A stretch of DNA of 64,000 nucleotides from Clostridia bacterium (GTDB lineage Bacteria > Bacillota > Clostridia > Oscillospirales > Acutalibacteraceae): contig CAAGBN010000068.1 in assembly GCA_900768075.1 (NCBI GenBank), positions 10,827 through 74,826 of the forward strand, in the 5' to 3' direction. The notes under the pieces are model-generated. The model was not told where the DNA came from. It ran no database searches and saw nothing but the letters and a program-made list of their open reading frames with translations. Every line of letters begins with the position of its first letter. Position 1 is the stretch's first letter. Positions 3,893 to 62,963 of the stretch are shown here, one piece after another. Made by a program: the position numbers and the translations under genes.

Positions 3893-4142
3893 AATATCGT
3901 TTAAAAGCTATGACTGAGAAAACAGTAGTCGACGGACAAGACTTTTCAGAGAGGGATTCATATGCTGAAAGAATCCTACTGTCCCCGAAGATGAATTTCG
4001 CCTCACGAGCCGCCTGTGAAAAGCAGGATGTAGTTGCTGCATTAAAGCAAACCAAAGTGGCAGGGTACAAAACAAACCTTGCAATTTGAGTGGTACCACG
4101 GATATTTTTCCGCCTCAATGTTATGAGGCGGTTTTATTTTTT
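3893..4142 (+). promoter_or_regulatory. T-box riboswitch leader (Phe) with terminator/antiterminator
   Basis: T-box sequence aatttgagtggtaccacgg at 4083-4101. Terminator ccgcctc/gaggcgg at 4110-4131 followed by a T-tract. AGAGA-type motif at 3947-3953. Tentative UUC specifier at 3997-3999. Lies directly upstream of pheS. Confidence 0.8.
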
Positions 4143-5232: not shown

Positions 5233-7593
5233 ATGTTTTTATCAATGAATTGGATTTCAGACTTTGTTGACCTTGAGGGTATCGATAAGCTTGACCTTAT
5301 CCACAGATTCTCACTCTCAACAGCTGAAGTTGAAAACGAAATTTTCTTCAAGGGTAGCGACATCAGCGGTATCGTTGTTGCTGAAATCAAGGAAATCGCA
5401 GATCACCCCGAATCAAAGAAGCTTCACCTTTTAAAGGTTGATGCAGGCGACGGTCAGCTCACAGATGTTGTTTGCGGTGCTCCCAATGTAAGAGTTGGTA
5501 TGAAGACTGCTTTTGCTAAAATCGGTGCAAAGATCGGTGAAATCGATATCACACCCAGAGCTCTTGCAGGTTACACCTCCTACGGTATGTGCTGCAGCGG
5601 TAAGGAAATCGGTATCAGCGACGATAACAGCGGTATTATGGATATTACAGACGATATTCCCAACGGTACCGATATCAAGGATGCATACGAAGTTGAAGAT
5701 ATCATCTTCGAGGTTGACAATAAGTCACTCACAAACCGTCCTGACCTCTGGGGTCACTACGGTATTGCAAGAGAGTTTGCAGCTCTTGCAGGCAGACCTC
5801 TCAAGGCTCTTGACAGTGCAGATCTTTCCAAGTATGACAATCTTCCCAAGGTTGATATGAAAATCGAAGACGACCTTTGTCAGAGATATTCCTGCTTACA
5901 GGTTGAAAACATCACAAAGAATGTCAGCCCCGTAAATATGCAGATCAGACTCTTCTACTGCGGTATGAGAAGCATTAATCTTCTCGCTGACCTTACAAAC
6001 TACCTTATGCTTGAAATGGGTCAGCCTATGCACGCTTTCGACTCAAGAAAGGTTGAAAAGCTTCGCATCAAGCGTTTCGATGAAAGCTTCAGCTTCACAA
6101 CTCTTGACGGTATCGAGAGAAACATCGACGAAAACACACTTATGATCTGTAACGGTGACACACCTGTTGCTATTGCAGGTATTATGGGTGGTCTTGACAG
6201 TGAAATCGTTGAAGACACAACAACACTTACTCTTGAAAGTGCTACCTTCAACGCTGTTTCAATCCGTAAGTCAACAGTAAGACTTTCACACAGAACAGAC
6301 GCTTCAATGAGATATGAGAAGTGCCTTGACCCCGAAATGACAGTACCTGCTATTGCCCGTTTCGTTAAGCTTCTTCAGGATATCGACGGTGGCGTGAATG
6401 TTGTTTCAGCTCTTACAGACGAAAAAGCTTTCGAATACGATAAGGTAAGCCTCAGCTTCGACAAGAAGTTTGTTGACAGATATACAGGTATCGAAATCAG
6501 CAACGAAACTATCGTTAAGACTCTCGAAAGCCTCGGCTTCGGTGTAGAGCTTAAGGGTGACGATTTCACAGTTGCAGTACCCTCATGGAGAGCAACTAAG
6601 GACGTAACTATCAAGGCTGACATCATCGAAGAAATCACAAGAATTTACGGCTACGATAACTTCGATATCCACACAACAGAGTCACCTATTTATCCCGTAC
6701 GTCCCGATGTAGAAAAGACAGTTGAAGACAAAATCAAGGATATCCTTGTTAAGCGCTTCTCACTTCACGAAATGCACTCATATGTATGGATGTACTACGA
6801 TGAGTGTAAGGATCTCGGCATCGAAATCGAAGATAACGTTAAGCTTGTAAATGCTACTAACCCCAACATTGAGGTTATCAGAAAGTCAATCGTTCCCACA
6901 CAGCTTTGTCAGGCTAAGATCAACAACACATATGCTCCCTCATTCGGCATCTTCGAAGTGGGCAGAGTTGTTGAAGGTCTTAAGGAAGACGGACTTTGCA
7001 ACGAAAAGAAGAAGCTTGCTATCACACTCTTCTCAAAGACAAAGTCAATGGAAGAAATTTACTTCGAGCTTCGTGATATGCTTGCAACTCTTGCTCTTGA
7101 TATCAAGCATCTTTCACTTTCATATGAAACTATCGCAGCTACACATTGCTATCAGCATCCCAAGAACCTCAACGCTGTAATTCTCGGTGGCAAGGTTATC
7201 GGTGAAATCGGTATTGTTCATCCTACAGTATCAAAGAAGGTTGATAAGAAGGCTAACATTGTTTACGCTGAAATCGACGTTAAGGATTTCGCTGAAGCTG
7301 CAGCAGATGCTATCAAGTACGAAGAACCCTCAAAGTTCCCCGGCATCGAAATTGACCTTTCATTCATTAGCGATAAGTTTGCTCCTATCGGCAAGGCTAT
7401 TGCAGATGCAAACTGTCCTCTTGTTAAGAAGACAGAGGTAGTTGATACTTACGCTGACGAAAACGGTAAGTCAATCACTTCAAGAATCACTTTTGCTCAT
7501 CCTGAAAAGACTCTTACAAAGGAAGAGGTTATGGATGTTGTAAACGGCATTATTGCTGACCTTGAAGCAAAGGGCATCAGCCTCAAGAAATAA
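5233..7593 (+). CDS. pheT: Phenylalanine--tRNA ligase beta subunit
   Basis: 786 aa. N-terminal tRNA-binding domain, B3/4, B5 and FDX-ACB-like C-terminus. Immediately follows pheS. Confidence 0.95.
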   Translation: MFLSMNWISDFVDLEGIDKLDLIHRFSLSTAEVENEIFFKGSDISGIVVAEIKEIADHPESKKLHLLKVDAGDGQLTDVVCGAPNVRVGMKTAFAKIGAKIGEIDITPRALAGYTSYGMCCSGKEIGISDDNSGIMDITDDIPNGTDIKDAYEVEDIIFEVDNKSLTNRPDLWGHYGIAREFAALAGRPLKALDSADLSKYDNLPKVDMKIEDDLCQRYSCLQVENITKNVSPVNMQIRLFYCGMRSINLLADLTNYLMLEMGQPMHAFDSRKVEKLRIKRFDESFSFTTLDGIERNIDENTLMICNGDTPVAIAGIMGGLDSEIVEDTTTLTLESATFNAVSIRKSTVRLSHRTDASMRYEKCLDPEMTVPAIARFVKLLQDIDGGVNVVSALTDEKAFEYDKVSLSFDKKFVDRYTGIEISNETIVKTLESLGFGVELKGDDFTVAVPSWRATKDVTIKADIIEEITRIYGYDNFDIHTTESPIYPVRPDVEKTVEDKIKDILVKRFSLHEMHSYVWMYYDECKDLGIEIEDNVKLVNATNPNIEVIRKSIVPTQLCQAKINNTYAPSFGIFEVGRVVEGLKEDGLCNEKKKLAITLFSKTKSMEEIYFELRDMLATLALDIKHLSLSYETIAATHCYQHPKNLNAVILGGKVIGEIGIVHPTVSKKVDKKANIVYAEIDVKDFAEAAADAIKYEEPSKFPGIEIDLSFISDKFAPIGKAIADANCPLVKKTEVVDTYADENGKSITSRITFAHPEKTLTKEEVMDVVNGIIADLEAKGISLKK

Positions 7594-7597
7594 AAAA

Positions 7598-7656
7598 TAT
7601 CGCGTTTTTGATTCTTTTTCCGCGATAGGAAAAAGAATGCCTGCCCGGCTAGGGCA
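7598..7656 (+). repeat. Stop-codon-proximal two-hairpin repeat, family A, copy A1
   Basis: HP1 attctttttcc (7611-7621) / ggaaaaagaat (7628-7638). HP2 tgccc-ggcta-gggca (7642-7656). Near-identical to 55503-55545 and related to 8305-8359 and 57751-57810. Confidence 0.8.
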
Positions 7657-7671
7657 AAGAAAGATTGATAA

Positions 7672-7749
7672 CCCCTCAGTCAAAATTGACAAGCCAATTT
7701 TGACATCTCTCCTTTCAGGGGCGACTAGAAAGAGGTTGCACCTGCGGTG
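7672..7749 (+). repeat. Structured repeat module B, copy B1
   Basis: The flanks cccctc..gtca..tgacatctc..cctttcagggg.gac..gaggtt are shared with 55627-55691. The internal hairpin is replaced (gtcaaaattg/caattttgac). Confidence 0.7.
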
Positions 7750-8304: not shown

Positions 8305-8359
8305 AAAGTTCTTTTGATTGCTTTTCTTTCAAGAAAAGTAATGCCTGCACGGCGAGTGC
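8305..8359 (+). repeat. Family A repeat, copy A2
   Basis: ttttgattgcttttct..agaaaagtaatgcc followed by tgcac-ggcga-gtgca. Aligns with A1, with a compensated HP2. Confidence 0.65.
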
Positions 8360-27885: not shown

Positions 27886-28977
27886 ATGGATAATCATGAC
27901 AAGGAATTACTCTTAAAAGCTCTTATTGATAAGGGCGTAGCCAATGGTAAAATCAACTCATCAGAAATCGACGCAGTTATCGTTGAGGCTGATGTTGATA
28001 TGGAAAAAATGGATGAAATATATACTAAGCTCGAAAGCAAGGGCGTAGAAATTATCGACGACTTCAGCGATGATGCTATTGACGATATCACTGTTGATAT
28101 TGATATGCCCAAGGATTATGACAGTGTTTCTGTTTCAGCTCTCGATGCAAAGAGTGTTATCGATGACCCCGTTAAGGTTTATCTTAAGGATATCGGCAGA
28201 GTACCTCTTTTATCACCTGAAGAGGAAATCGAGCTTGCCATCAGAATCGAAAACAACGATAAAGAAGCAAAGGAAATTCTTACAAAGGCAAACCTTCGTC
28301 TTGTTGTAAGTATTGCTAAAAAATATGTGGGCAGAGGTATGATGTTCCTTGATCTTATTCAGGAGGGTAACCTCGGTCTTATCAAGGCTGTTGATAAGTT
28401 CGACCACTCAAAGGGCTTCAAGTTCTCAACCTATGCTACCTGGTGGATCAGACAGTCAATCACAAGAGCTATTGCTGATCAGGGCAGAACAATCCGTATC
28501 CCTGTTCATATGGTTGAAACTATCAATAAGGTTAAGAAGGCAAGCAATATGCTTCTCCACCGTGACGGCAAAGAGCCTACTCCCGAGGATATCGCAAAGG
28601 AGCTCGGTCTCGGTGTTGATAAGGTAAGAGAAATCCTCAGAATTTCACAGGAGCCCGTTTCACTTGAAACTCCCATCGGTGAAGAGGAAGACAGCCACCT
28701 TGGTGACTTCATTCCCGACGAGGATGCACTTTCACCTGCTGACGCTGCAGCTATGACCTTCCTTAAGACTAAGGTAAACGAAGTGCTTGAAACTCTCACT
28801 CCAAGAGAAGCTGAAGTATTAAGACTTCGTTTTGGTCTCGGCGAGGGCACACCTCAGACTCTTGAAGAGGTTGGTAAGGCTTTCAATGTTACAAGAGAGC
28901 GTATCAGACAGATTGAAGCTAAGGCTCTTCGTAAATTAAGACATCCTAGCAGAAGCAAGCATCTCAAAGACTTATAA
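27886..28977 (+). CDS. rpoD: Primary RNA polymerase sigma factor
   Basis: Regions 1.2 to 4.2, including [27 protein letters not shown] and the region 4.2 HTH. Confidence 0.95.
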
Positions 28978-28986
28978 TAAACTTTA

Positions 28987-29015
28987 AAGGACACCCTTGT
29001 GGGTGTCCTTTTTAT
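28987..29015 (+). terminator. Intrinsic terminator of rpoD
   Basis: aaggacaccc / gggtgtcctt, loop ttgt, then a T-run. Confidence 0.8.
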
Positions 29016-29017
29016 GT

Positions 29018-29137
29018 AGTTTCTGCAAGAGGTGGGTTGCGGCTCCATGAAATCGCGAAGCGATTTCCGAGGAGCGCGCAGCGCTCCTCGTGCCGAATTT
29101 CATTCGGCAATGGAGCCGCCTGCCAGCCGCCACCTCA
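29018..29137 (+). repeat. GC-rich four-way-junction repeat, family C, copy C1
   Basis: Closing helix 29039-29048/29110-29119. Three perfect hairpins: 29050-29066, 29068-29090 and 29092-29108. Outer helix 29029-29035/29130-29136. Homologous to 46681-46785 and, inverted, to 61421-61542. Confidence 0.8.
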
Positions 29138-29938
29138 GACTTTATATATAAACATCACAAACTCTGTGGTTATGTCCATTCCCTCAATACCGCTGAGCTT
29201 TGTCTTATCCTCGTCCTTGGTGTGATAGTAGTAGGGGGTCATCTTAAACAGTGAGTCTATATCATCACTGCTTTCAAGATGTACCTTTGCAGTGATTTTT
29301 CTCTTTTCGATGAGGGTGAGATTTTCAGTTTCGGGCGGTTGCTCGTCATTTTTATAAGGGGTTTCATAAAGAAGCTCCTTAAGCTCAAAAAGGTGATTTT
29401 CGCCTGCAACAACGCTGATAATATAACCACCGTTTTTGGTGATACGGCTGAATTCTTTCTCGTGAAAAGGTGCGAAAAGGTGAAGGGAAATATCAACGCT
29501 CTTGTCCTTGACGGGAATTCTTGCAAGATTGCCTACGAAATAGGTTATGCCGTTTTTGCGCTTGGCAGCAAGTCGCACCATCTCTTTTGAAAGGTCGAAG
29601 CCAAGCATATGACAATCAATTTCGCCTTTGATTCTGTCGCCGTAATAACCCTCGCCACAGCAGATATCGGCTATGGTGGGACGCGTTATAGCTGTTTCTT
29701 TGATAAAAGCTGTAAGTCCGCCGACAAGGGCATCGAAATAACCCTGGGTGAGAAAATTACGGCGGTTGACAGCCATATCCTTATTGTCACCGATTAAGCT
29801 ACCTTTTTTATGTGAGGATGTCAGCAGATTGACATATCTCTCCTTAGCTTTGTCAAAGCAGTGACCCTTAGGGCAGATATAGCTTTTATCAGTTTGGGTA
29901 AGAAGCTCACCGCATACGGGGCAAATTATTTCTATCAT
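29135..29938 (-). CDS. 23S rRNA (guanine-N1)-methyltransferase RlmA-like
   Basis: N-terminal Zn-ribbon (CPVCGELL...CPKGHCFD) followed by a SAM-MTase fold (DICCGEGYY). Confidence 0.75.
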   Translation of the reverse strand: MIEIICPVCGELLTQTDKSYICPKGHCFDKAKERYVNLLTSSHKKGSLIGDNKDMAVNRRNFLTQGYFDALVGGLTAFIKETAITRPTIADICCGEGYYGDRIKGEIDCHMLGFDLSKEMVRLAAKRKNGITYFVGNLARIPVKDKSVDISLHLFAPFHEKEFSRITKNGGYIISVVAGENHLFELKELLYETPYKNDEQPPETENLTLIEKRKITAKVHLESSDDIDSLFKMTPYYYHTKDEDKTKLSGIEGMDITTEFVMFIYKV

Positions 29939-34094: not shown

Positions 34095-34347
34095 ACTTAC
34101 GACTTAAAGAAGGATGTCGTTTTGCTTAAGCCGATTACTCGCGGCTCCACAATATCATCAAAGGCAGGTCTTCTGACTCAGCTATCAATGCCTTGCTTCG
34201 TCTTCTCGGCCTTCACCAATGACTGTGCTTTTGCACCTGAAGCAAGACTCCTGCATTACAGCGACGAGTTCGTGAGGGATTTTCACCCTTCTTCCCTTTT
34301 CACCGGATATATAAATTTATCCGACACCTTAGATGTTTATTCACTTG
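34095..34347 (-). promoter_or_regulatory. Cobalamin riboswitch
   Basis: On the minus strand: GGGAAGAAGGGTGAAAATCCC (plus 34276-34297) and B12 box AGTCAGAAGACCTGCC (plus 34163-34178). ccttctttaa can pair with the RBS region, which suggests translational control. Confidence 0.8.
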
Positions 34348-46680: not shown

Positions 46681-46785
46681 AGTTTCTACAAGAGGCGGGA
46701 TGGGGCTGCGCGAAATCGCCTCGAGGGCGATTTCCGAGGGCACCCTCGAGCCGAACTGCGTTCGGCTGCGCAGCCCCCCGCCGCA
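46681..46785 (+). repeat. Family C four-way-junction repeat, copy C2
   Basis: Closing helix ggggctgcgc 46702-46711 / gcgcagcccc 46768-46777. Hairpins at 46713-46733, 46735-46748 and 46749-46767. The 5' flank agtttctacaagaggcggg matches C1. Confidence 0.8.
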
Positions 46786-46872
46786 AAGCAGGTATTTCCA
46801 CAAAACTTACGGGATAATTTTTCGATGATGAAGAATAAAGCACTGCTTACCCACTATTTATGAATAAAATTG

Positions 46873-46932: not shown

Positions 46933-47079
46933 ATGAAGCGTATTAAGACAATGGAAACAAAAAATCTTTGCAATTCAGCTAAGAACGGCGGTTGCGGCGA
47001 ATGCCAGACATCCTGCCAGTCAGCATGTAAGACAAGCTGCGGTATCGCTAATCAGCAGTGCGAAAGCAAGCAGAAATAA
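46933..47079 (+). CDS. SCIFF (six-cysteine) ranthipeptide precursor
   Basis: 48 aa: MKRIKTMETKNLCNSAKNGGCGECQTSCQSACKTSCGIANQQCESKQK. The GGCGECQTSCQSACKTSC core is the SCIFF signature. GGAGG RBS. Confidence 0.9.
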   Translation: MKRIKTMETKNLCNSAKNGGCGECQTSCQSACKTSCGIANQQCESKQK

Positions 47080-47097
47080 TTATTGATTTTTGAGATG

Positions 47098-47128
47098 TGC
47101 CGCCGACCTAAACTCGGTGGCATTTTTC
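47098..47128 (+). terminator. Intra-operon attenuating terminator between precursor and maturase
   Basis: tgccgccga / tcggtggca (one G-U pair), loop cctaaac, then ttttt. Confidence 0.6.
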
Positions 47129-47165
47129 CGTAATAAATATAGTTTAAATGAAAGGTAGACTGAAA

Positions 47166-48545
47166 ATGATACATTCCTATAAACTCGGTGGTCTGAATAT
47201 CGTGCTTGATATCTGCTCGGGCTCAGTGCATGTGGTTGACGAGGTTGCTTACGATATAATCGGACTTTATGAAAGCGAGAGCAAAGAAAATATCATCGCT
47301 CAGATGCTTGAGAAGTACGCTGACAGAGACGATGTTACCAAAGAAGAGCTTGAGCTTTGCTTTGAGGATATCGAAGAGCTTAAGGCTCAGGGTAAGCTTT
47401 TTTCAGAGGACACCTTTGAGCCTATGGCAGGGGATCTTAAGAAAAAGAGTGCAGGTATCGTAAAGGCTCTTTGTATGCACATCGCACACACCTGCAATCT
47501 CAACTGCTCTTACTGCTTTGCAAGTCAGGGCAAGTACCACGGTGACAGAGCTATGATGAGCTTCGAGGTTGGTAAGCAGGCTTTTGATTTCCTTATTGCT
47601 AATTCAGGTACAAGAAGAAACCTTGAGGTTGACTTCTTTGGCGGTGAGCCCCTTATGAATTTCGATGTGGTTAAGGAGCTTGTGGCTTATGCAAGAAGCA
47701 TCGAAAAGGATCACGGCAAAAACTTCCGTTTTACTCTCACAACCAACGGTGTGCTTATTGATGACGATGTCATTGACTTTGCCAACAAGGAAATGAGCAA
47801 CGTTGTTTTAAGTCTCGACGGCAGAAAAGAAGTACACGACCGCTTCCGTGTGGACTATAACGGCAAGGGTAGCTGGGATAAGATAGTGCCCAAATTCCAG
47901 AAGCTTGTAGAGGCTCGTGAGGGTAAGAACTATTATATGAGAGGTACCTTCACTCATCATAACCCCGACTTCCTTGAGGATATCAAGGAGATGCTTTCAC
48001 TCGGCTTTAAGGAGCTGAGTATGGAGCCTGTTGTCTGCGCCGCTGATGACCCATCTGCTCTTACAGATGAAGATTTACCTGTAGTTATGAAGCAGTACGA
48101 AGACCTTGCAGAGCTTATGCTTAAAAAGCACAAAGAGGGAGACGGCTTCACATTCTATCACTATATGATTGATCTTAAGGGTGGCCCTTGTATCTATAAG
48201 AGAATTTCAGGTTGTGGCTCGGGTACAGAGTATATGGCTGTAACTCCCTGGGGTGATCTTTATCCCTGCCATCAGTTTGTAGGCGAAGAAAAATACAGGC
48301 TCGGTGATGTCTGGAAGGGTGTTACAAACACAGATGTTCAGAATGAATTTGCAGAGTGCAACGTATATACAAGAGAAGAGTGCCGCAAATGTTGGGCAAG
48401 ACTTTACTGCTCAGGCGGTTGTGCGGCTAATGCCTACCACGCAACAGGCAGCGTAAAGGGTATCTATGCTACAGGCTGTGAGCTTTTCAAAAAGAGAATG
48501 GAATGTGCAATTATGCTTGAAGTTGCCAAGACCTTAGGTGAATAA
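47166..48545 (+). CDS. SCIFF radical SAM / SPASM-domain maturase
   Basis: CNLNCSYC radical-SAM cluster motif and a C-terminal SPASM cysteine set (CRKCWARLYCSGGC). Adjacent to the SCIFF gene. Start likely ATG 47166. Confidence 0.9.
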   Translation: MIHSYKLGGLNIVLDICSGSVHVVDEVAYDIIGLYESESKENIIAQMLEKYADRDDVTKEELELCFEDIEELKAQGKLFSEDTFEPMAGDLKKKSAGIVKALCMHIAHTCNLNCSYCFASQGKYHGDRAMMSFEVGKQAFDFLIANSGTRRNLEVDFFGGEPLMNFDVVKELVAYARSIEKDHGKNFRFTLTTNGVLIDDDVIDFANKEMSNVVLSLDGRKEVHDRFRVDYNGKGSWDKIVPKFQKLVEAREGKNYYMRGTFTHHNPDFLEDIKEMLSLGFKELSMEPVVCAADDPSALTDEDLPVVMKQYEDLAELMLKKHKEGDGFTFYHYMIDLKGGPCIYKRISGCGSGTEYMAVTPWGDLYPCHQFVGEEKYRLGDVWKGVTNTDVQNEFAECNVYTREECRKCWARLYCSGGCAANAYHATGSVKGIYATGCELFKKRMECAIMLEVAKTLGE

Positions 48546-54640: not shown

Positions 54641-55492
54641 ATGAATAAAAACGTATTCGGTACTGACCTTACAGGTAAGACCGCAGTTGTAACAGGTGCA
54701 GGCGGTGTCCTTTGCTCTTCATTTGCAAAGACTCTTGCAGCTGCAGGCGCTAAGGTTGCTCTTCTTGATATCAACGAAGAAGCTGCTAAGGGCTTCGCTG
54801 ATGAAATCGTAGCTGAGGGCGGTGTTGCCAAGGCTTATAAGTGCAACGCTCTCGATAAGGACAGCTGTAATGCTGTAGCTGAAGCAGTTTTAGCTGACCT
54901 TGGTCCTTGCGATATTCTTCTCAACGGTGCAGGCGGTAACAATCCTAGAGCTACCACAGATAAGGAATATTACTTCAGCGGTGACATCGATGAAGACTGC
55001 AAAAACTTCTTCAATCTTGATGCTGACGGTGTTTCATTTGTTTTCAACCTCAACTTCCTTGGTACTCTTATTCCTACTCAGGCATTTGCAAAGCAGATGC
55101 TCGGCAGAGAGGGTTGTAACATTATCAACATCTCATCAATGAACGCTTTCACACCTCTTACAAAGATTCCTGCTTATTCAGGTGCAAAGGCTGCTGTTTC
55201 AAACTTCACACAGTGGCTTGCAGTTCACTTCTCAAAAGAGGGTATCAGAGTTAATGCTATTGCTCCCGGTTTCTTCTCAACCAAGCAGAATGCTGCTCTT
55301 CTCTGGAATCCCGACGGTTCACCCACACCCCGTACAGACAAGATTCTTGCTGCTACTCCTATGGGTCGTTTCGGTGAAGCTCACGAGCTTGACGGCGCAC
55401 TTCTTTTCCTCATCAACAACGATGCAGCAGGCTTTATCACAGGTGTTGTACTTCCCGTTGACGGTGGCTTCTCATCATACAGCGGTGTATAA
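54641..55492 (+). CDS. SDR family oxidoreductase (candidate short-chain D-mannonate/fructuronate reductase)
   Basis: TGAGGVL Rossmann motif and a YSGAK catalytic motif. Start at ATG 54641 behind AGGAGG; the longer track ORF overlaps uxuA. Confidence 0.8.
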   Translation: MNKNVFGTDLTGKTAVVTGAGGVLCSSFAKTLAAAGAKVALLDINEEAAKGFADEIVAEGGVAKAYKCNALDKDSCNAVAEAVLADLGPCDILLNGAGGNNPRATTDKEYYFSGDIDEDCKNFFNLDADGVSFVFNLNFLGTLIPTQAFAKQMLGREGCNIINISSMNAFTPLTKIPAYSGAKAAVSNFTQWLAVHFSKEGIRVNAIAPGFFSTKQNAALLWNPDGSPTPRTDKILAATPMGRFGEAHELDGALLFLINNDAAGFITGVVLPVDGGFSSYSGV

Positions 55493-55500
55493 AAAATAAC

Positions 55501-55555
55501 AACGCGTTTTTGATTCTTTTTCCGCGGCAGGAAAAAGAATGCCCCGCGGCGAGCG
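55501..55555 (+). repeat. Family A repeat, copy A3
   Basis: cgcgtttttgattctttttccgcg is identical over 24 nt to A1. HP1 55513-55523/55530-55540. Weak HP2 cgc-ggcga-gcg. Confidence 0.8.
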
Positions 55556-55626
55556 ATAATTAATAAACAATTCGAAATCTCGGATGAGTCAGATTAAGAG
55601 ATAAAATCTGATGCCGCAAAATTAAA

Positions 55627-55691
55627 CCCCTCTGTCACTTCGTGACATCTCCCCTTTCAGGGGTGACGAGGTTATAGTGGCACCTTAGTGC
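55627..55691 (+). repeat. Module B repeat, copy B3
   Basis: cccctctgtcacttcgtgacatctcccctttcaggggtgacgaggtt followed by the small hairpin gcac-ctta-gtgc. Aligns with 7672-7749. Confidence 0.7.
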
Positions 55692-57750: not shown

Positions 57751-57810
57751 TAGCGCATTTTTGGTTGCTTTTTGTGCGCTAACAAAAAGTAATGCCCGCC
57801 CGGCGAGGGC
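57751..57810 (+). repeat. Family A repeat, copy A4
   Basis: HP1 ttgctttttgt 57766-57776 / acaaaaagtaa 57783-57793. Loop gcgcta is complementary to tagcgc 57751-57756. HP2 gccc-ggcga-gggc 57798-57810. Confidence 0.75.
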
Positions 57811-61311: not shown

Positions 61312-61420
61312 ATTGTCACAACGTGACAGTGAAAAAAATGCAGAATGCAGAATTGCGGGCAAAAGAAATGAAAAAGAAAGTAATGTCCCGCAGTGAGCGC
61401 AGAATAAATCAGGTCTGATA

Positions 61421-61542
61421 AAGAGGTGAGAGGCGGCTCCATAGCCGAAGCCGTCGGCTTCGGCTCAAAGCAGAGCAAGGCTCTGCTTTGTAAATCGCAA
61501 AGCGATTTAATGGAGCCGTCGCACCCACCTACAGCACAAACC
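61421..61542 (-). repeat. Family C four-way-junction repeat, copy C3 (inverted)
   Basis: Closing helix 61432-61442/61510-61520. Hairpins at 61443-61465, 61466-61490 and 61492-61508. The reverse complement aligns with C1, including the flank ggtttgtgctgtaggtggg. Confidence 0.8.
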
Positions 61543-61573
61543 AAATAAAAAAGGACGGCTCGCACCGTCCTTT
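61541..61573 (-). terminator. Intrinsic terminator of the ROK-like kinase gene
   Basis: aaaggacgg / ccgtccttt, loop ctcgca, with a T-run on the minus strand. Confidence 0.75.
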
Positions 61574-61586
61574 AAATTTTATCCTA

Positions 61587-62963
61587 TTATTTAATCTTAG
61601 GAAGACTTGCAGCAGCAACTGACTGACCTACACGTCTTGACTTTTCATCGGGGATGTGAAGCTGAATCTTCTTTGCAAGCTCGGGGAATTCTACATCAAG
61701 AACCTCCTGAGCTCTTTCAAGGAGGATAACACCGCCTTCGCCTGAGGTTACACGGCCCATAATAAGCACGTGCTTGATGTCATAGAATTCAGCATAGTAA
61801 GCAATAGCATAACCGAAGTAAGCACCGATTGTGTCGTAAATATCAGCGGCTCTTTGATCACCCTCAGCCATAAGAGACTGCACAACCTTAAGCTTTTCGG
61901 CAGGGGAGAGGCTTTCGTCAAGCTCGATGCCTGCCCAGGGAGCAACCTTGATAACGCCATCCTGTGAGAAGTACTTAACACCACAGCCGTAGTCGCCTGA
62001 CCACTCGTCAACCATAGCTTCCTCGCAGAAGTCAACGGGAACGAATGCAAGCTCGTTGAGCCAGCCTGTGATATTGCCGTCGGGATCAACATAACCGCCG
62101 GCCTCACTTGTACCCATAGCAACACCGAGTACGCTGTCGTCGTTTAAGTCCATAGCACCTGCAAGAGCAGTTACATCACCGTCATTTGCAACCTCGATAG
62201 GAATATCAGCACCGATTTCCTTTGCAACATCGAGATACATATTCTTAACCTTCTTGTCGAAGTCTTCTTCGTTAACTTTAAGGAAAAGTGATGCTGCCAT
62301 AATACGGTTGTCGATATATACACCTGCTGATGATACACCGATGGCATCAACGCGAGGCATCTTTGAAGCTGCTGTTTTCATTGCATCTAAAATGCCCTGA
62401 TAGTGATAGTCGGGGTCTGACTGAAGCTTGGGGAACCATACAACCTCTTCTGAGTATACGCTTTCACCGTCGATAACAGCACTAACCTTACGGTCACTTC
62501 CGCCTGCATCGAAACCGATACGGCAGCCGTCAAGATGTCTGCCGATAGGTGCAGCTGATGACTTATCCTCGGGAGCGTCCTCAAGAGTACGGATTTCAAC
62601 TACGAACTTTTCTTCGTATACCTTTTCCATAAAATTAACATCAAAATCACGAAGACCGCCGTAGGTGAAAGCTTCTTTAATTTTAGCACCTACAACCTCA
62701 CTGCCTGCAATGATAACCTTATAACCGCCTGCAACCCAGAGAAGTGACTTTGCAATACGCTCAACAAACTTGAAGTTTTCTTCGTCATGACCTGTACCGT
62801 CAGCAAAAATGCGTGTCTTGTATGTAGTTGTGTAGCCCTTATTTCTTTCAACGGCAATTACGATATCCTGACCGTTTTCTTTTGTTGCCTCACGCATTTC
62901 ACGGCAAACGATTGATAAAGGCTGAAATTTAGGGTCGAGTTTTGCATTAACTTTAAGCTTCAT
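61587..62963 (-). CDS. ROK/ASKHA-type sugar kinase-like protein with N-terminal extension
   Basis: IGFDAGGSDRK phosphate-1-like motif and GVSSAGV. About 130 aa precede the kinase fold. Overlaps nagA by 11 nt. Confidence 0.5.
   Translation of the reverse strand: MKLKVNAKLDPKFQPLSIVCREMREATKENGQDIVIAVERNKGYTTTYKTRIFADGTGHDEENFKFVERIAKSLLWVAGGYKVIIAGSEVVGAKIKEAFTYGGLRDFDVNFMEKVYEEKFVVEIRTLEDAPEDKSSAAPIGRHLDGCRIGFDAGGSDRKVSAVIDGESVYSEEVVWFPKLQSDPDYHYQGILDAMKTAASKMPRVDAIGVSSAGVYIDNRIMAASLFLKVNEEDFDKKVKNMYLDVAKEIGADIPIEVANDGDVTALAGAMDLNDDSVLGVAMGTSEAGGYVDPDGNITGWLNELAFVPVDFCEEAMVDEWSGDYGCGVKYFSQDGVIKVAPWAGIELDESLSPAEKLKVVQSLMAEGDQRAADIYDTIGAYFGYAIAYYAEFYDIKHVLIMGRVTSGEGGVILLERAQEVLDVEFPELAKKIQLHIPDEKSRRVGQSVAAASLPKIK

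Follow-up and report, generated by a model that had tools for sequence, protein, structure and literature searches.

A cloverleaf-shaped family of interspersed palindromes in ruminant-gut Clostridia, probably a DNA-level repeat settling beside terminators

A GC-rich repeat in a stretch of DNA of 64,000 nucleotides (nt) from a Clostridia bacterium of the family Acutalibacteraceae (GenBank assembly GCA_900768075.1, contig CAAGBN010000068.1, positions 10,827 to 74,826 of the forward strand; the whole stretch that was analysed is called the window hereafter) folds into a four-way junction, in which three hairpins are enclosed by a closing helix. An original prediction, made from the letters of the window, had drawn attention to three copies of this repeat, which we call the cloverleaf, and had left a choice between a structured noncoding RNA (ncRNA), a DNA element resembling repetitive extragenic palindromes (REP) or transposable elements of the miniature inverted-repeat type (MITE), and a recombination or insulator site. 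Here we show that the cloverleaf belongs to a large family that conserves its fold while the sequences of its arms change, and that its pairing obeys Watson-Crick DNA rules on both strands, not RNA rules. We interpret it as a DNA-level, REP/MITE-like selfish repeat beside terminators, a reading to which we give a probability of roughly 0.6.

Results

The cloverleaf and its three copies in the window

The letters of copy 1 at 29018-29137 are as originally given, and its four-way junction together with an outer helix was reproduced as the minimum-free-energy structure both by RNAfold and by folding with DNA parameters. The RNA fold reached −69.6 kcal/mol (z = −7.6), with 0 of 200 shuffles as good, while the DNA fold reached −45.7 kcal/mol (z = −8.9) and was never matched by shuffles. 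The three hairpins (H1, H2 and H3) are perfect, have 3-nt loops and are separated by 0-1 nt. The parts of copy 1 and the terminator next to it are as follows, those within the element being taken from the minimum-free-energy folds.

28986-29013, plus strand: intrinsic-terminator-like hairpin (28986-29011) and T-run of rpoD, from a terminator scan; it abuts the 5' edge of copy 1 and is context of the landing site, outside the element
29018-29036, plus strand: 5' outer layer (AGTTTCTGCAAGAGGTGGG), in which 29029-29035 forms the outer helix on its 5' side; conservation is lower here than in the core
29039-29048, plus strand: 5' arm of the closing helix (GCGGCTCCAT)
29049-29067, plus strand: H1 (GAAATCGC-GAA-GCGATTTC), carrying the mini-hairpin motif GCGAAGC
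29068-29090, plus strand: H2 (CGAGGAGCGC-GCA-GCGCTCCTCG), the hypervariable arm, carrying GCGCAGC
29091-29109, plus strand: H3 (TGCCGAAT-TTC-ATTCGGCA)
29110-29119, plus strand: 3' arm of the closing helix (ATGGAGCCGC)
29130-29137, plus strand: 3' arm of the outer helix (CCACCTC, pairing at 29130-29136), overlapping the stop codon of the RlmA-like gene

Copy 1 lies, as had been described, between the terminator of rpoD (27886-28977), which is part of a dnaG-rpoD operon, and the stop codon of the convergent open reading frame (ORF) of an RlmA-like methyltransferase (29135-29938, minus strand). Copies 2 and 3 indeed share the architecture of copy 1, their folds having z values from −6.3 to −10; bit scores in the list below refer to the covariance model of the family.

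46681-46785, plus strand: copy 2, complete (folded stretch 46681-46790), 89.9 bits, same fold
46681-46699, plus strand: 5' layer of copy 2
46702-46711 and 46768-46777, plus strand: closing helix of copy 2, with an outer arm at about 46777-46782
46712-46734, 46735-46748 and 46749-46767, plus strand: H1, H2 and H3 of copy 2
61415-61545, minus strand: copy 3, complete, 96.6 bits, same fold; its ortholog is at 2705-2845 of retrieved locus L069
61432-61442 and 61510-61520 (plus-strand coordinates), minus strand: closing helix of copy 3, with outer arms at about 61423-61431 and 61524-61532
61443-61465, 61466-61490 and 61491-61509 (plus-strand coordinates), minus strand: H3, H2 and H1 of copy 3
61550-61573, minus strand: bidirectional terminator hairpin of the minus-strand gene 61587-62963, from the terminator scan; it abuts the 5' edge of copy 3

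The 3-nt loops originally described do not hold throughout, as in copy 2 the H1 loop has 5 nt and the H2 loop 4 nt. Copies 1 and 3 do sit just after a terminator (of rpoD and of gene 61587-62963, respectively) and are co-oriented with the gene before it, whereas copy 2 has no terminator before it and occupies the divergent promoter region, or intergenic gap, upstream of a Trp-repressor-like gene. This gene is followed by hisZ/hisG-type genes, and the other side of copy 2 holds a divergent pair of a SCIFF peptide (PF13165) and a radical-SAM maturase (region ~46950-48545, equivalent to L254:1-1144). Scans around the terminator-adjoining loci found no promoter-like sites flanking the window copies. 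The higher GC content that had been judged by eye was confirmed by counting, with 57-73% in the elements and 42.5% in the window. The modules shared by the copies (the 5' flank, AAATCGC..GCGATTT of H1 and GCCGAA..TTCGGC of H3) each occur exactly three times in the 64 kb, where ~0.01 occurrences would be expected by chance, and the covariance model with its filters off returned these three copies only.

A large family in ruminant-gut Clostridia

Scanning a species-representative genome collection with a 26-base pattern that demands H1 and H3 gave at least 102 loci; among the matches listed, almost all were in Acutalibacteraceae/Clostridia metagenome-assembled genomes (MAGs) from ruminant guts (yak, roe deer and others), and two outliers, a Treponema MAG and a Rhodobacteraceae genome, matched in the H1-H3 part only. 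A covariance model built from 107 copies then detected ~27 more copies in the same loci that have no match to the pattern. A metagenome scan with a looser 20-base pattern added ~20 genuine copies, about 100 of its 120 loci being chance matches. Thus the search with a covariance model, which had been put forward together with the three copies, found many copies beyond the window, and the total came to at least 154 distinct copies from ruminant-gut Acutalibacteraceae/Clostridia MAGs and metagenomes in independent assemblies (ENA, JGI, NCBI and Logan). The element consists of a core of ~78 nt and measures ~110-140 nt with its outer layers. Extrapolation from three copies per 64-kb window suggests roughly a hundred copies per host genome. 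The nearest relative of the window among the fetched genomes was MAG JAZTWC, in which the flanks of copy 3 are 89-98% identical.

Comparison with Rfam 15, also put forward originally, revealed no credible family: no copy was matched in gathering mode, and the best match in E-value mode was MicX, with 26 bits against a gathering score of 75 bits, spanning the rpoD terminator. ARAGORN called 0 tRNA or tmRNA genes in the window, the arms of the element being 7-11 bp long with 3-nt loops. A blastn search in distant mode of plasmid and phage collections returned no match, and the 20 matches of the loose 20-base pattern to IMG/VR viral contigs were all chance ones, leaving the element absent there at that sensitivity. 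Literature searches found no description of the cloverleaf family. It is a previously undescribed member of the familiar class of bacterial interspersed palindromic repeats.

The fold is conserved while the arms change

Folding of 134 copies gave exactly three hairpins inside the closing helix in 131 of them, and in many copies the cloverleaf core is enclosed by a further imperfect outer helix. Pair statistics were taken from 71 copies aligned to the model, including metagenome copies and copies not selected by the pattern. In this structural alignment, fitted to the model structure, 96% of the cells held standard pairs compared with 34-45% when the 3' partners were slid, and 28 of 33 pairs had changed on both sides. 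All 8 pairs of H1 and all 7 pairs of H3 had changed on both sides in the less biased alignment, and the covariation score of 0.452 (0.121 in shuffles) was reached by 0 of 500 shuffles. The covariation noticed between the three window copies is therefore real, and far stronger across the family than three copies could show. The accompanying claim that the closing helix changes on both arms is true of its inner and outer ends, where the inner pairs covary (AU:40/GC:30 and UA:39/CG:28); however, this helix is the most conserved part of the family, its centre, GGCT(C)/(G)AGCC, being the only nearly invariant part. A MAFFT alignment gave the same picture for the closing helix. Copies not pre-selected by sequence displayed H1 variants such as AAAGCAC/GTGCTTT, AAACCGC/GCGGTTT and GAATCCG/CGGATTC, and H3 variants such as CCCGAA/TTCGGG, GCTGAA/TTCAGC, GACAAAGCC/GGCTTTGTC and GCTGCGGC/GCCGCAGC.

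Pairing follows DNA rules on both strands

We reasoned that an RNA evolving under RNA rules would pass through and tolerate G·U pairs on its own strand only. Among ~5100 predicted pairs, G·U accounted for 2.4% on the sense and 1.9% on the antisense strand, and the structural alignment held ~14 cells with one-sided (G·U-type) departures against 410 cells changed on both sides. G·U pairs being rare and symmetric, the pairing is of the DNA type.

The loops behave in the same strand-symmetric way. Loops of 3 nt make up 380 of 453 (84%), and their triplets occur at about the frequency of their reverse complements both in H3 (GAA 27/TTC 22, TGC 11/GCA 8, AAA 10/TTT 8) and in H2 (TGC 13/GCA 12, GAA 7/TTC 7). 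In a pair of orthologous copies with flanks ~95% identical, one loop is TTT in one copy and AAA in the other. The flip of a perfect palindrome alters its loop only. DNA would be indifferent to such a change, which inversion or template switching is expected to produce, but an RNA would not. GNA and TNC together form 45% of the triloops, where 12.5% would be expected, and AAA/TTT another 25%. GCGNAGC is known as the 'mini-hairpin DNA' motif, with two G-C pairs and a sheared G·A and a melting temperature of about 76 °C; its DNA hairpin is stabler than the RNA equivalent and is typical of single-stranded DNA (ssDNA) origins and priming signals (PMC13037366). Both strands of the window copies fold equally well as ssDNA, with energies of −45.7/−45.9, −42.5/−42.0 and −44.6/−45.0 kcal/mol for the two strands of each copy. 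Taken together, the family displays strand-symmetric Watson-Crick pairing, DNA-type loops and loop inversion, the marks of an ssDNA element.

Copies lie between genes and next to terminators

All copies are intergenic; those that seemed to lie inside ORFs were covered by spurious short ORFs reading through the GC-rich element. Relative to their neighbours, 40 copies were tandem co-oriented and 23 tandem anti-oriented, 27 lay in convergent gaps and 8 in divergent gaps, the last representing 8 of 98 copies compared with 21% of background intergenic regions. The few copies in divergent gaps and the mixed orientations indicate that promoter regions are avoided and that orientation preference is weak. 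The recurrent neighbour genes are all housekeeping genes.

Of 117 copies, 48 (41%) have a terminator-like hairpin with a T-run directly at their 5' side, and 26 (22%) have one of the other strand directly at their 3' side, compared with a background of 6.8% per scanned stretch. On both sides the abutting terminators stand at a stereotyped 17-30 nt from the closing helix, and in many copies the T-run ends 21-23 nt before it, although the junctions are heterogeneous, with the 3' side also terminator-flanked in 22%. The junction consensus is TTTT|AGTYTS...SARACT|AAAA. The element is not itself an intrinsic terminator: on both strands the consensus is rich in T ahead of the structure and rich in A behind it, and the terminators detected are separate abutting hairpins.

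Other sequences recur near the copies. Many 5' flanks (e.g. L030, L032, L035 and L100) carry a CTGACGAAA(A/T)TT motif at ~30-40 nt from the closing helix, in some cases with CGTCAG on the 3' side; the motif is inverted in a locus that lacks the element (L048:6231-6565 compared with L064:5080-5320). A second variant of the outer layer reads GTACGCGGG...CCCGCGTAC. This variant and the motif may represent further nested palindrome layers or a separate short repeat. Several copies also lie near genes for membrane-anchored proteins of ~300 amino acids with a Thr/Pro/Gln-rich linker and no Pfam match (L022:75-1031, L027:3530-4492, L066:7196-7999, L086:2407-3303, L104:1380-2276, L118:6862-7800 and others), the one in L086 being flanked by two inverted cloverleaf copies. 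We considered this family as a partner of the element and rejected it; its members are probably surface proteins that have no connection with the cloverleaf.

Copies spread, decay and change rapidly

In 23 pairs of copies, cores of ~78 nt are 93-100% identical while the flanks are unrelated. Most near-identical pairs lose similarity at the closing helix, indicating greater variability, and in part a locus-specific sequence, in the outer inverted layer. Insertion of the core into pre-existing outer palindromes was considered and abandoned, no empty outer palindromes having been found. One filled and empty pair of sites was recovered, in which terminator-GTTTTT|97-nt element|GTAATTA corresponds to GTTTTT|GTAATTA with no target duplication. 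In two decayed copies (L029:~445-520 and L054:~1490-1570) the three hairpins are gone, as deletion of an unstable palindrome would lead one to expect, while the 5' outer layer, the closing helix's 5' arm and the A-rich 3' tail remain. Furthermore, homology between related genomes sometimes starts or stops at the edge of the element, marking synteny breaks.

Hairpin tips are mutational hotspots. Copy 3 and its counterpart in the sister MAG share an upstream flank that is ~97% identical, whereas their H2 is wholly different and the extension of H3 has changed with compensation. Strain variants of copy 2 (L254, L255 and L259), with flanks ~99% identical, differ at the tip of H1, which is rearranged, and by gain or loss of 11 nt at the tip of H2, where a 5-bp hairpin stands against a triloop hairpin of 11 bp. 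No empty site emerged at the window loci: every strain found for copy 2 has the element, and the exact proteins encoded beside copies 1 and 3 had no record. The sole contig with an identical RpoD (L001) stops inside copy 1, at the equivalent of window position 29069, and 5 of the 8 retrieved contigs that carry the gene beside copy 2 end at or inside the element (L256-L258, L260 and L261). That short-read metagenome contigs repeatedly end there indicates that the family fragments assemblies.

An IS200 insertion sequence shares the landing site

The original prediction had noted the resemblance of the hairpins to substrates of Y1/RAYT-type enzymes (RAYT, REP-associated tyrosine transposase). A DNA element of the REP/MITE kind is indeed favoured by our results, but the GT[AG]G guide of REP systems is not conserved and no Y1 gene was found beside true copies in the fetched DNA. 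The phmmer probe for Y1 gave none in the host loci or the window, covering ~0.7 Mb around the sampled copies rather than whole host genomes. A search for an autonomous parent through distant half-elements gave chance matches in genes and the two decayed remnants only.

One lead came from a rumen Treponema MAG (L025), where an IS200-type Y1 transposase pseudogene (440-1233; PF01797, E = 1.8e-35) precedes, at 1234-1372, a series of perfect triloop hairpins that includes two identical to H1 and H3. Its close relative P0089 represents a lineage of 153-residue proteins that is very abundant in gut metagenomes, P0089 alone being found on 161 contigs. Ten independent P0089 insertions (L124-L133) were used to define the ends of this insertion sequence (IS). 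It starts with GGCTCGTGAGCC... (|GGCTCGTGAGCCGGTGAAAAATATGGAGCGAAGCGG...), contains GCGAAGC at this left end and stops at ...GGTTGTGATT (...CAAACCACCCGTTTTACGGGTGGTTGTGATT|). Each insertion lies directly behind ...TATTTT or GATTTT, in most cases the T-run of a terminator, and has no target duplication. The ends fixed by the ten insertions place the L025 hairpin array just outside the IS; with the array outside and no cloverleaf on IS200 contigs, IS200 was rejected as a carrier of the hairpins. A perfect triloop hairpin array lacking the closing helix directly abuts the IS200 right end at 2 of 11 insertion sites (L025 and L127, in the latter ~110-330 nt downstream of the stop codon). IS200 and the cloverleaf hairpins thus share a landing site and a style of chemistry, circumstantial signs of a possible link to a Y1 enzyme.

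Other features of the window

At gathering level, Rfam matched only a T-box leader (3901-4120, plus strand, 96.8 bits) and a cobalamin riboswitch (34146-34346, minus strand, 96.2 bits) in the window. Another repeat family is present at 7589-7743 and 55491-55685, its unit of ~155-195 nt comprising a hairpin GATTCTTTTTCC-GCGRYA-GGAAAAAGAATC, then a GCCYGC..GGGC hairpin and the conserved TGACATCTCYCCTTTCAGGGG. A second one, at 7630-7655, 8334-8359 and 57785-57810, is a shorter unit with a AAAAGTAATGCC hairpin. Neither is related in sequence to the cloverleaf, and Rfam matches neither at gathering level.

Discussion

Of the three options left by the original prediction, the REP/MITE-like DNA element is the best supported, because the cloverleaf forms a large dispersed intergenic family with near-identical cores in unrelated flanks, a filled and empty site, assembly breaks and DNA-type pairing. 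Either strand folds into the cloverleaf when unpaired, and in the mechanism that we propose the relevant form would be a cruciform or a single DNA strand, such as the template of the lagging strand. Perfect arms, flipped loops and the exchange of whole arms would be generated by intrastrand template switching (quasipalindrome correction) or palindrome inversion, both of them established mutational processes. Copies might be mobilised in trans by a host- or IS-encoded ssDNA enzyme of the HUH/Y1 (IS200/IS605-RAYT) type, a step that we propose tentatively on circumstantial evidence, and the selfish element would settle in transcriptionally safe sites. It is conceivable, though we would not expect it, that the cloverleaf is the substrate of an unrecognised clostridial ssDNA mobilisation system, with a junction- or hairpin-specific enzyme that is either a Y1/HUH relative or unrelated to it. 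Such an enzyme would recognise the GGCTC/GAGCC closing helix with H1 and H3 of the branched ssDNA and copy the ~78-nt core beside terminators, leaving the middle arm free to diversify by templated palindrome growth and flip. If this is true, the cloverleaf would be a branched-DNA analogue of REP/RAYT with flip/flop dynamics like those of the inverted terminal repeats (ITRs) of adeno-associated virus (AAV), in a bacterial chromosome.

Several observations weigh against a selfish DNA repeat of the REP/MITE kind. The filled and empty comparison is a single clean pair from a divergent subfamily (21.5 bits), and many copies persist at the orthologous position in different species, which might also reflect a benefit to the host. 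In ~0.95 Mb of fetched DNA, neither a transposase nor an HUH gene was found beside any true copy. Unlike a REP, the cloverleaf has GT[AG]G nearby (up to 16 nt away) in only 39 of 123 copies, the gaps ranging from 0 to 11 nt, where ~11% would be expected naively; unlike a MITE, it has no target duplication (in the single filled and empty case from the divergent subfamily), and no parent IS was found. The hairpin array of L025 is external to the IS, has no closing helix and comes from another phylum, so that the IS200 link may be coincidental. There is a mild orientation bias (40 co-oriented versus 23 anti-oriented copies), and the sense strand is stabler as RNA by a mean of 0.66 kcal/mol (p = 0.01). 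Finally, the counts of pairs come from alignments that follow the structure of the model and were ascertained in part with a sequence pattern; the aligned sequences are also related.

The biases in orientation and in sense-strand stability would suit a structured ncRNA or a cis-acting RNA, for example a four-way junction in 3' untranslated regions that shields mRNAs from 3' exonucleases, a protein platform or a small RNA. So would the very stable and highly significant fold, the massive covariation in all four helices and the fact that 41% of the family, with copies 1 and 3 of the window among them, lie just downstream of a gene terminator and are co-oriented with the gene. However, copies after terminators, with no promoter-like sites nearby and with about a third or more of them antisense to the nearest upstream gene, are hard to reconcile with a transcript, and Rfam holds no match. 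G·U pairs at ~2%, equal on both strands, with one-sided changes nearly absent, triloops that are equally X and the reverse complement of X, and GNA as a DNA-stability motif all point away from RNA, while ~100 or more copies per genome (by extrapolation), assembly breaks and near-identical copies in unrelated flanks are properties of a repeat, not a gene. We therefore regard the ncRNA option as improbable. REP and ERIC affect mRNA stability when co-transcribed, and by analogy RNA-level side effects of the cloverleaf on neighbouring transcripts are possible.

A DNA site domesticated by the host is likewise an unlikely explanation, be it a supercoiling or transcription insulator separating convergent or tandem units, a binding site for nucleoid proteins, gyrase or junction proteins, or an ssDNA priming signal. 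The copies kept at orthologous positions across species and the placement at gene ends and terminators speak for it, as do the strongly conserved GGCT(C)/(G)AGCC core and H1/H3 stems, expected of a protein-recognition element, and the equal structure on both strands, expected of cruciform extrusion. E. coli REPs bind gyrase and IHF. GCGNAGC mini-hairpins are, moreover, typical of ssDNA priming signals (PMC13037366). By contrast, the family has no positional regularity, the length and sequence of its arms differ even between close strains, and no partner protein was identified; decayed remnants, the presence/absence case and near-identical copies in unrelated flanks indicate ongoing spread. A host site is compatible with a selfish origin. 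A chance hairpin cluster, a terminator variant or an assembly artefact might be suspected for an element that adjoins terminators, with three copies only in the window and MAGs as its hosts, but this is excluded for practical purposes by the size of the family (at least 154 distinct copies in independent assemblies) and by covariation; in addition, shuffled sequences never fold as well, the structure is not followed by a T-run on either strand, and it is not recognised as tRNA or tmRNA.

Small palindromic repeats such as REP, ERIC, Correia and BOX shape the architecture, expression and assembly quality of bacterial genomes, and most good descriptions of them concern Proteobacteria and a small number of pathogens. 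The abundant repeat of uncultured ruminant-gut Clostridia has a different geometry, a branched four-way junction of perfect triloop hairpins, and it breaks up the metagenome assemblies of its hosts and marks synteny breakpoints. G·U avoidance, reverse-complement symmetry of loops and GNA mini-hairpins are signatures that separate DNA-level from RNA-level structural conservation; as massive covariation alone is no proof of a functional RNA, they advise caution in ncRNA discovery pipelines. A mobilising enzyme, if found, would extend the repertoire of ssDNA transposition substrates.

Comparison with known systems

Like REP, BIME and REPIN elements, the cloverleaf family consists of high-copy, GC-rich extragenic palindromes at gene 3' ends. 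In the REP system the structure is recognised as ssDNA, and the mobilising RAYT gene is typically single-copy and located elsewhere in the genome, with repeats on its two sides in the arrangement called a REPtron. A REP is defined by a GT[AG]G guide 0-2 nt 5' of the foot of a single hairpin of 21-65 nt, possibly bulged and often in inverted doublets, which form larger hairpins, and some families are 'double-foot' (PMC6006769). The cloverleaf unit is instead a four-way junction of ~78-110 nt, compared with the single imperfect hairpin of a REP, and a search of the host loci and of the window turned up no RAYT gene; its hosts are Clostridia, whereas the described REP families are mostly proteobacterial. 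The ends of IS200/IS605 and their PATE-type derivatives may resemble it in insertion without duplication just 3' of a short T-rich target, with which the one filled and empty pair is consistent, and in their reliance on DNA hairpins. Their two ends, however, carry separate imperfect hairpins in subterminal position, together with guide and cleavage tetranucleotides, and form no closed cloverleaf; similarity to rumen IS ends is limited to the 5-bp GGCTC/GAGCC stem, and no cognate TnpA was seen in the host loci. In contrast to a MITE, the outer inverted layer of the cloverleaf is its least conserved part and differs even between near-identical cores.

ERIC (IRU), Correia (CREE), RUP and bcr1 are similar in being non-coding, multi-copy, intergenic units of ~100-170 bp, imperfect palindromes with terminal inverted repeats, which are present or absent at orthologous sites and can fold when transcribed. 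These are, however, one long stem-loop, usually with defined terminal inverted repeats and target duplications (TA for Correia, TTTAT for bcr1), whereas the cloverleaf family conserves a branched core. The pneumococcal BOX (boxA-boxB-boxC) is a modular Firmicute repeat whose outer modules are conserved and pair while the central module is variable; BOX may be likened to the cloverleaf in this modularity but is not known to resemble it in sequence, and it varies in the number of boxB, whereas the middle hairpin of the cloverleaf varies in sequence and length but stays one perfect hairpin. The ITRs of parvoviruses and AAV (T-shaped, in flip and flop forms) and the telomere palindromes of Streptomyces are branched ssDNA hairpin ends handled by HUH nucleases or primases. 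By analogy, the short perfect 3-nt-loop palindromes (AAA/TTT, GNA) on a closing stem and the arms in flip and flop states may be likened to these ends and to the phage G4 and ssiA origins. Those are unique terminal or origin structures of replicons, with two arms, whereas the cloverleaf is an internal repeat with three arms and, by extrapolation, about a hundred copies per genome.

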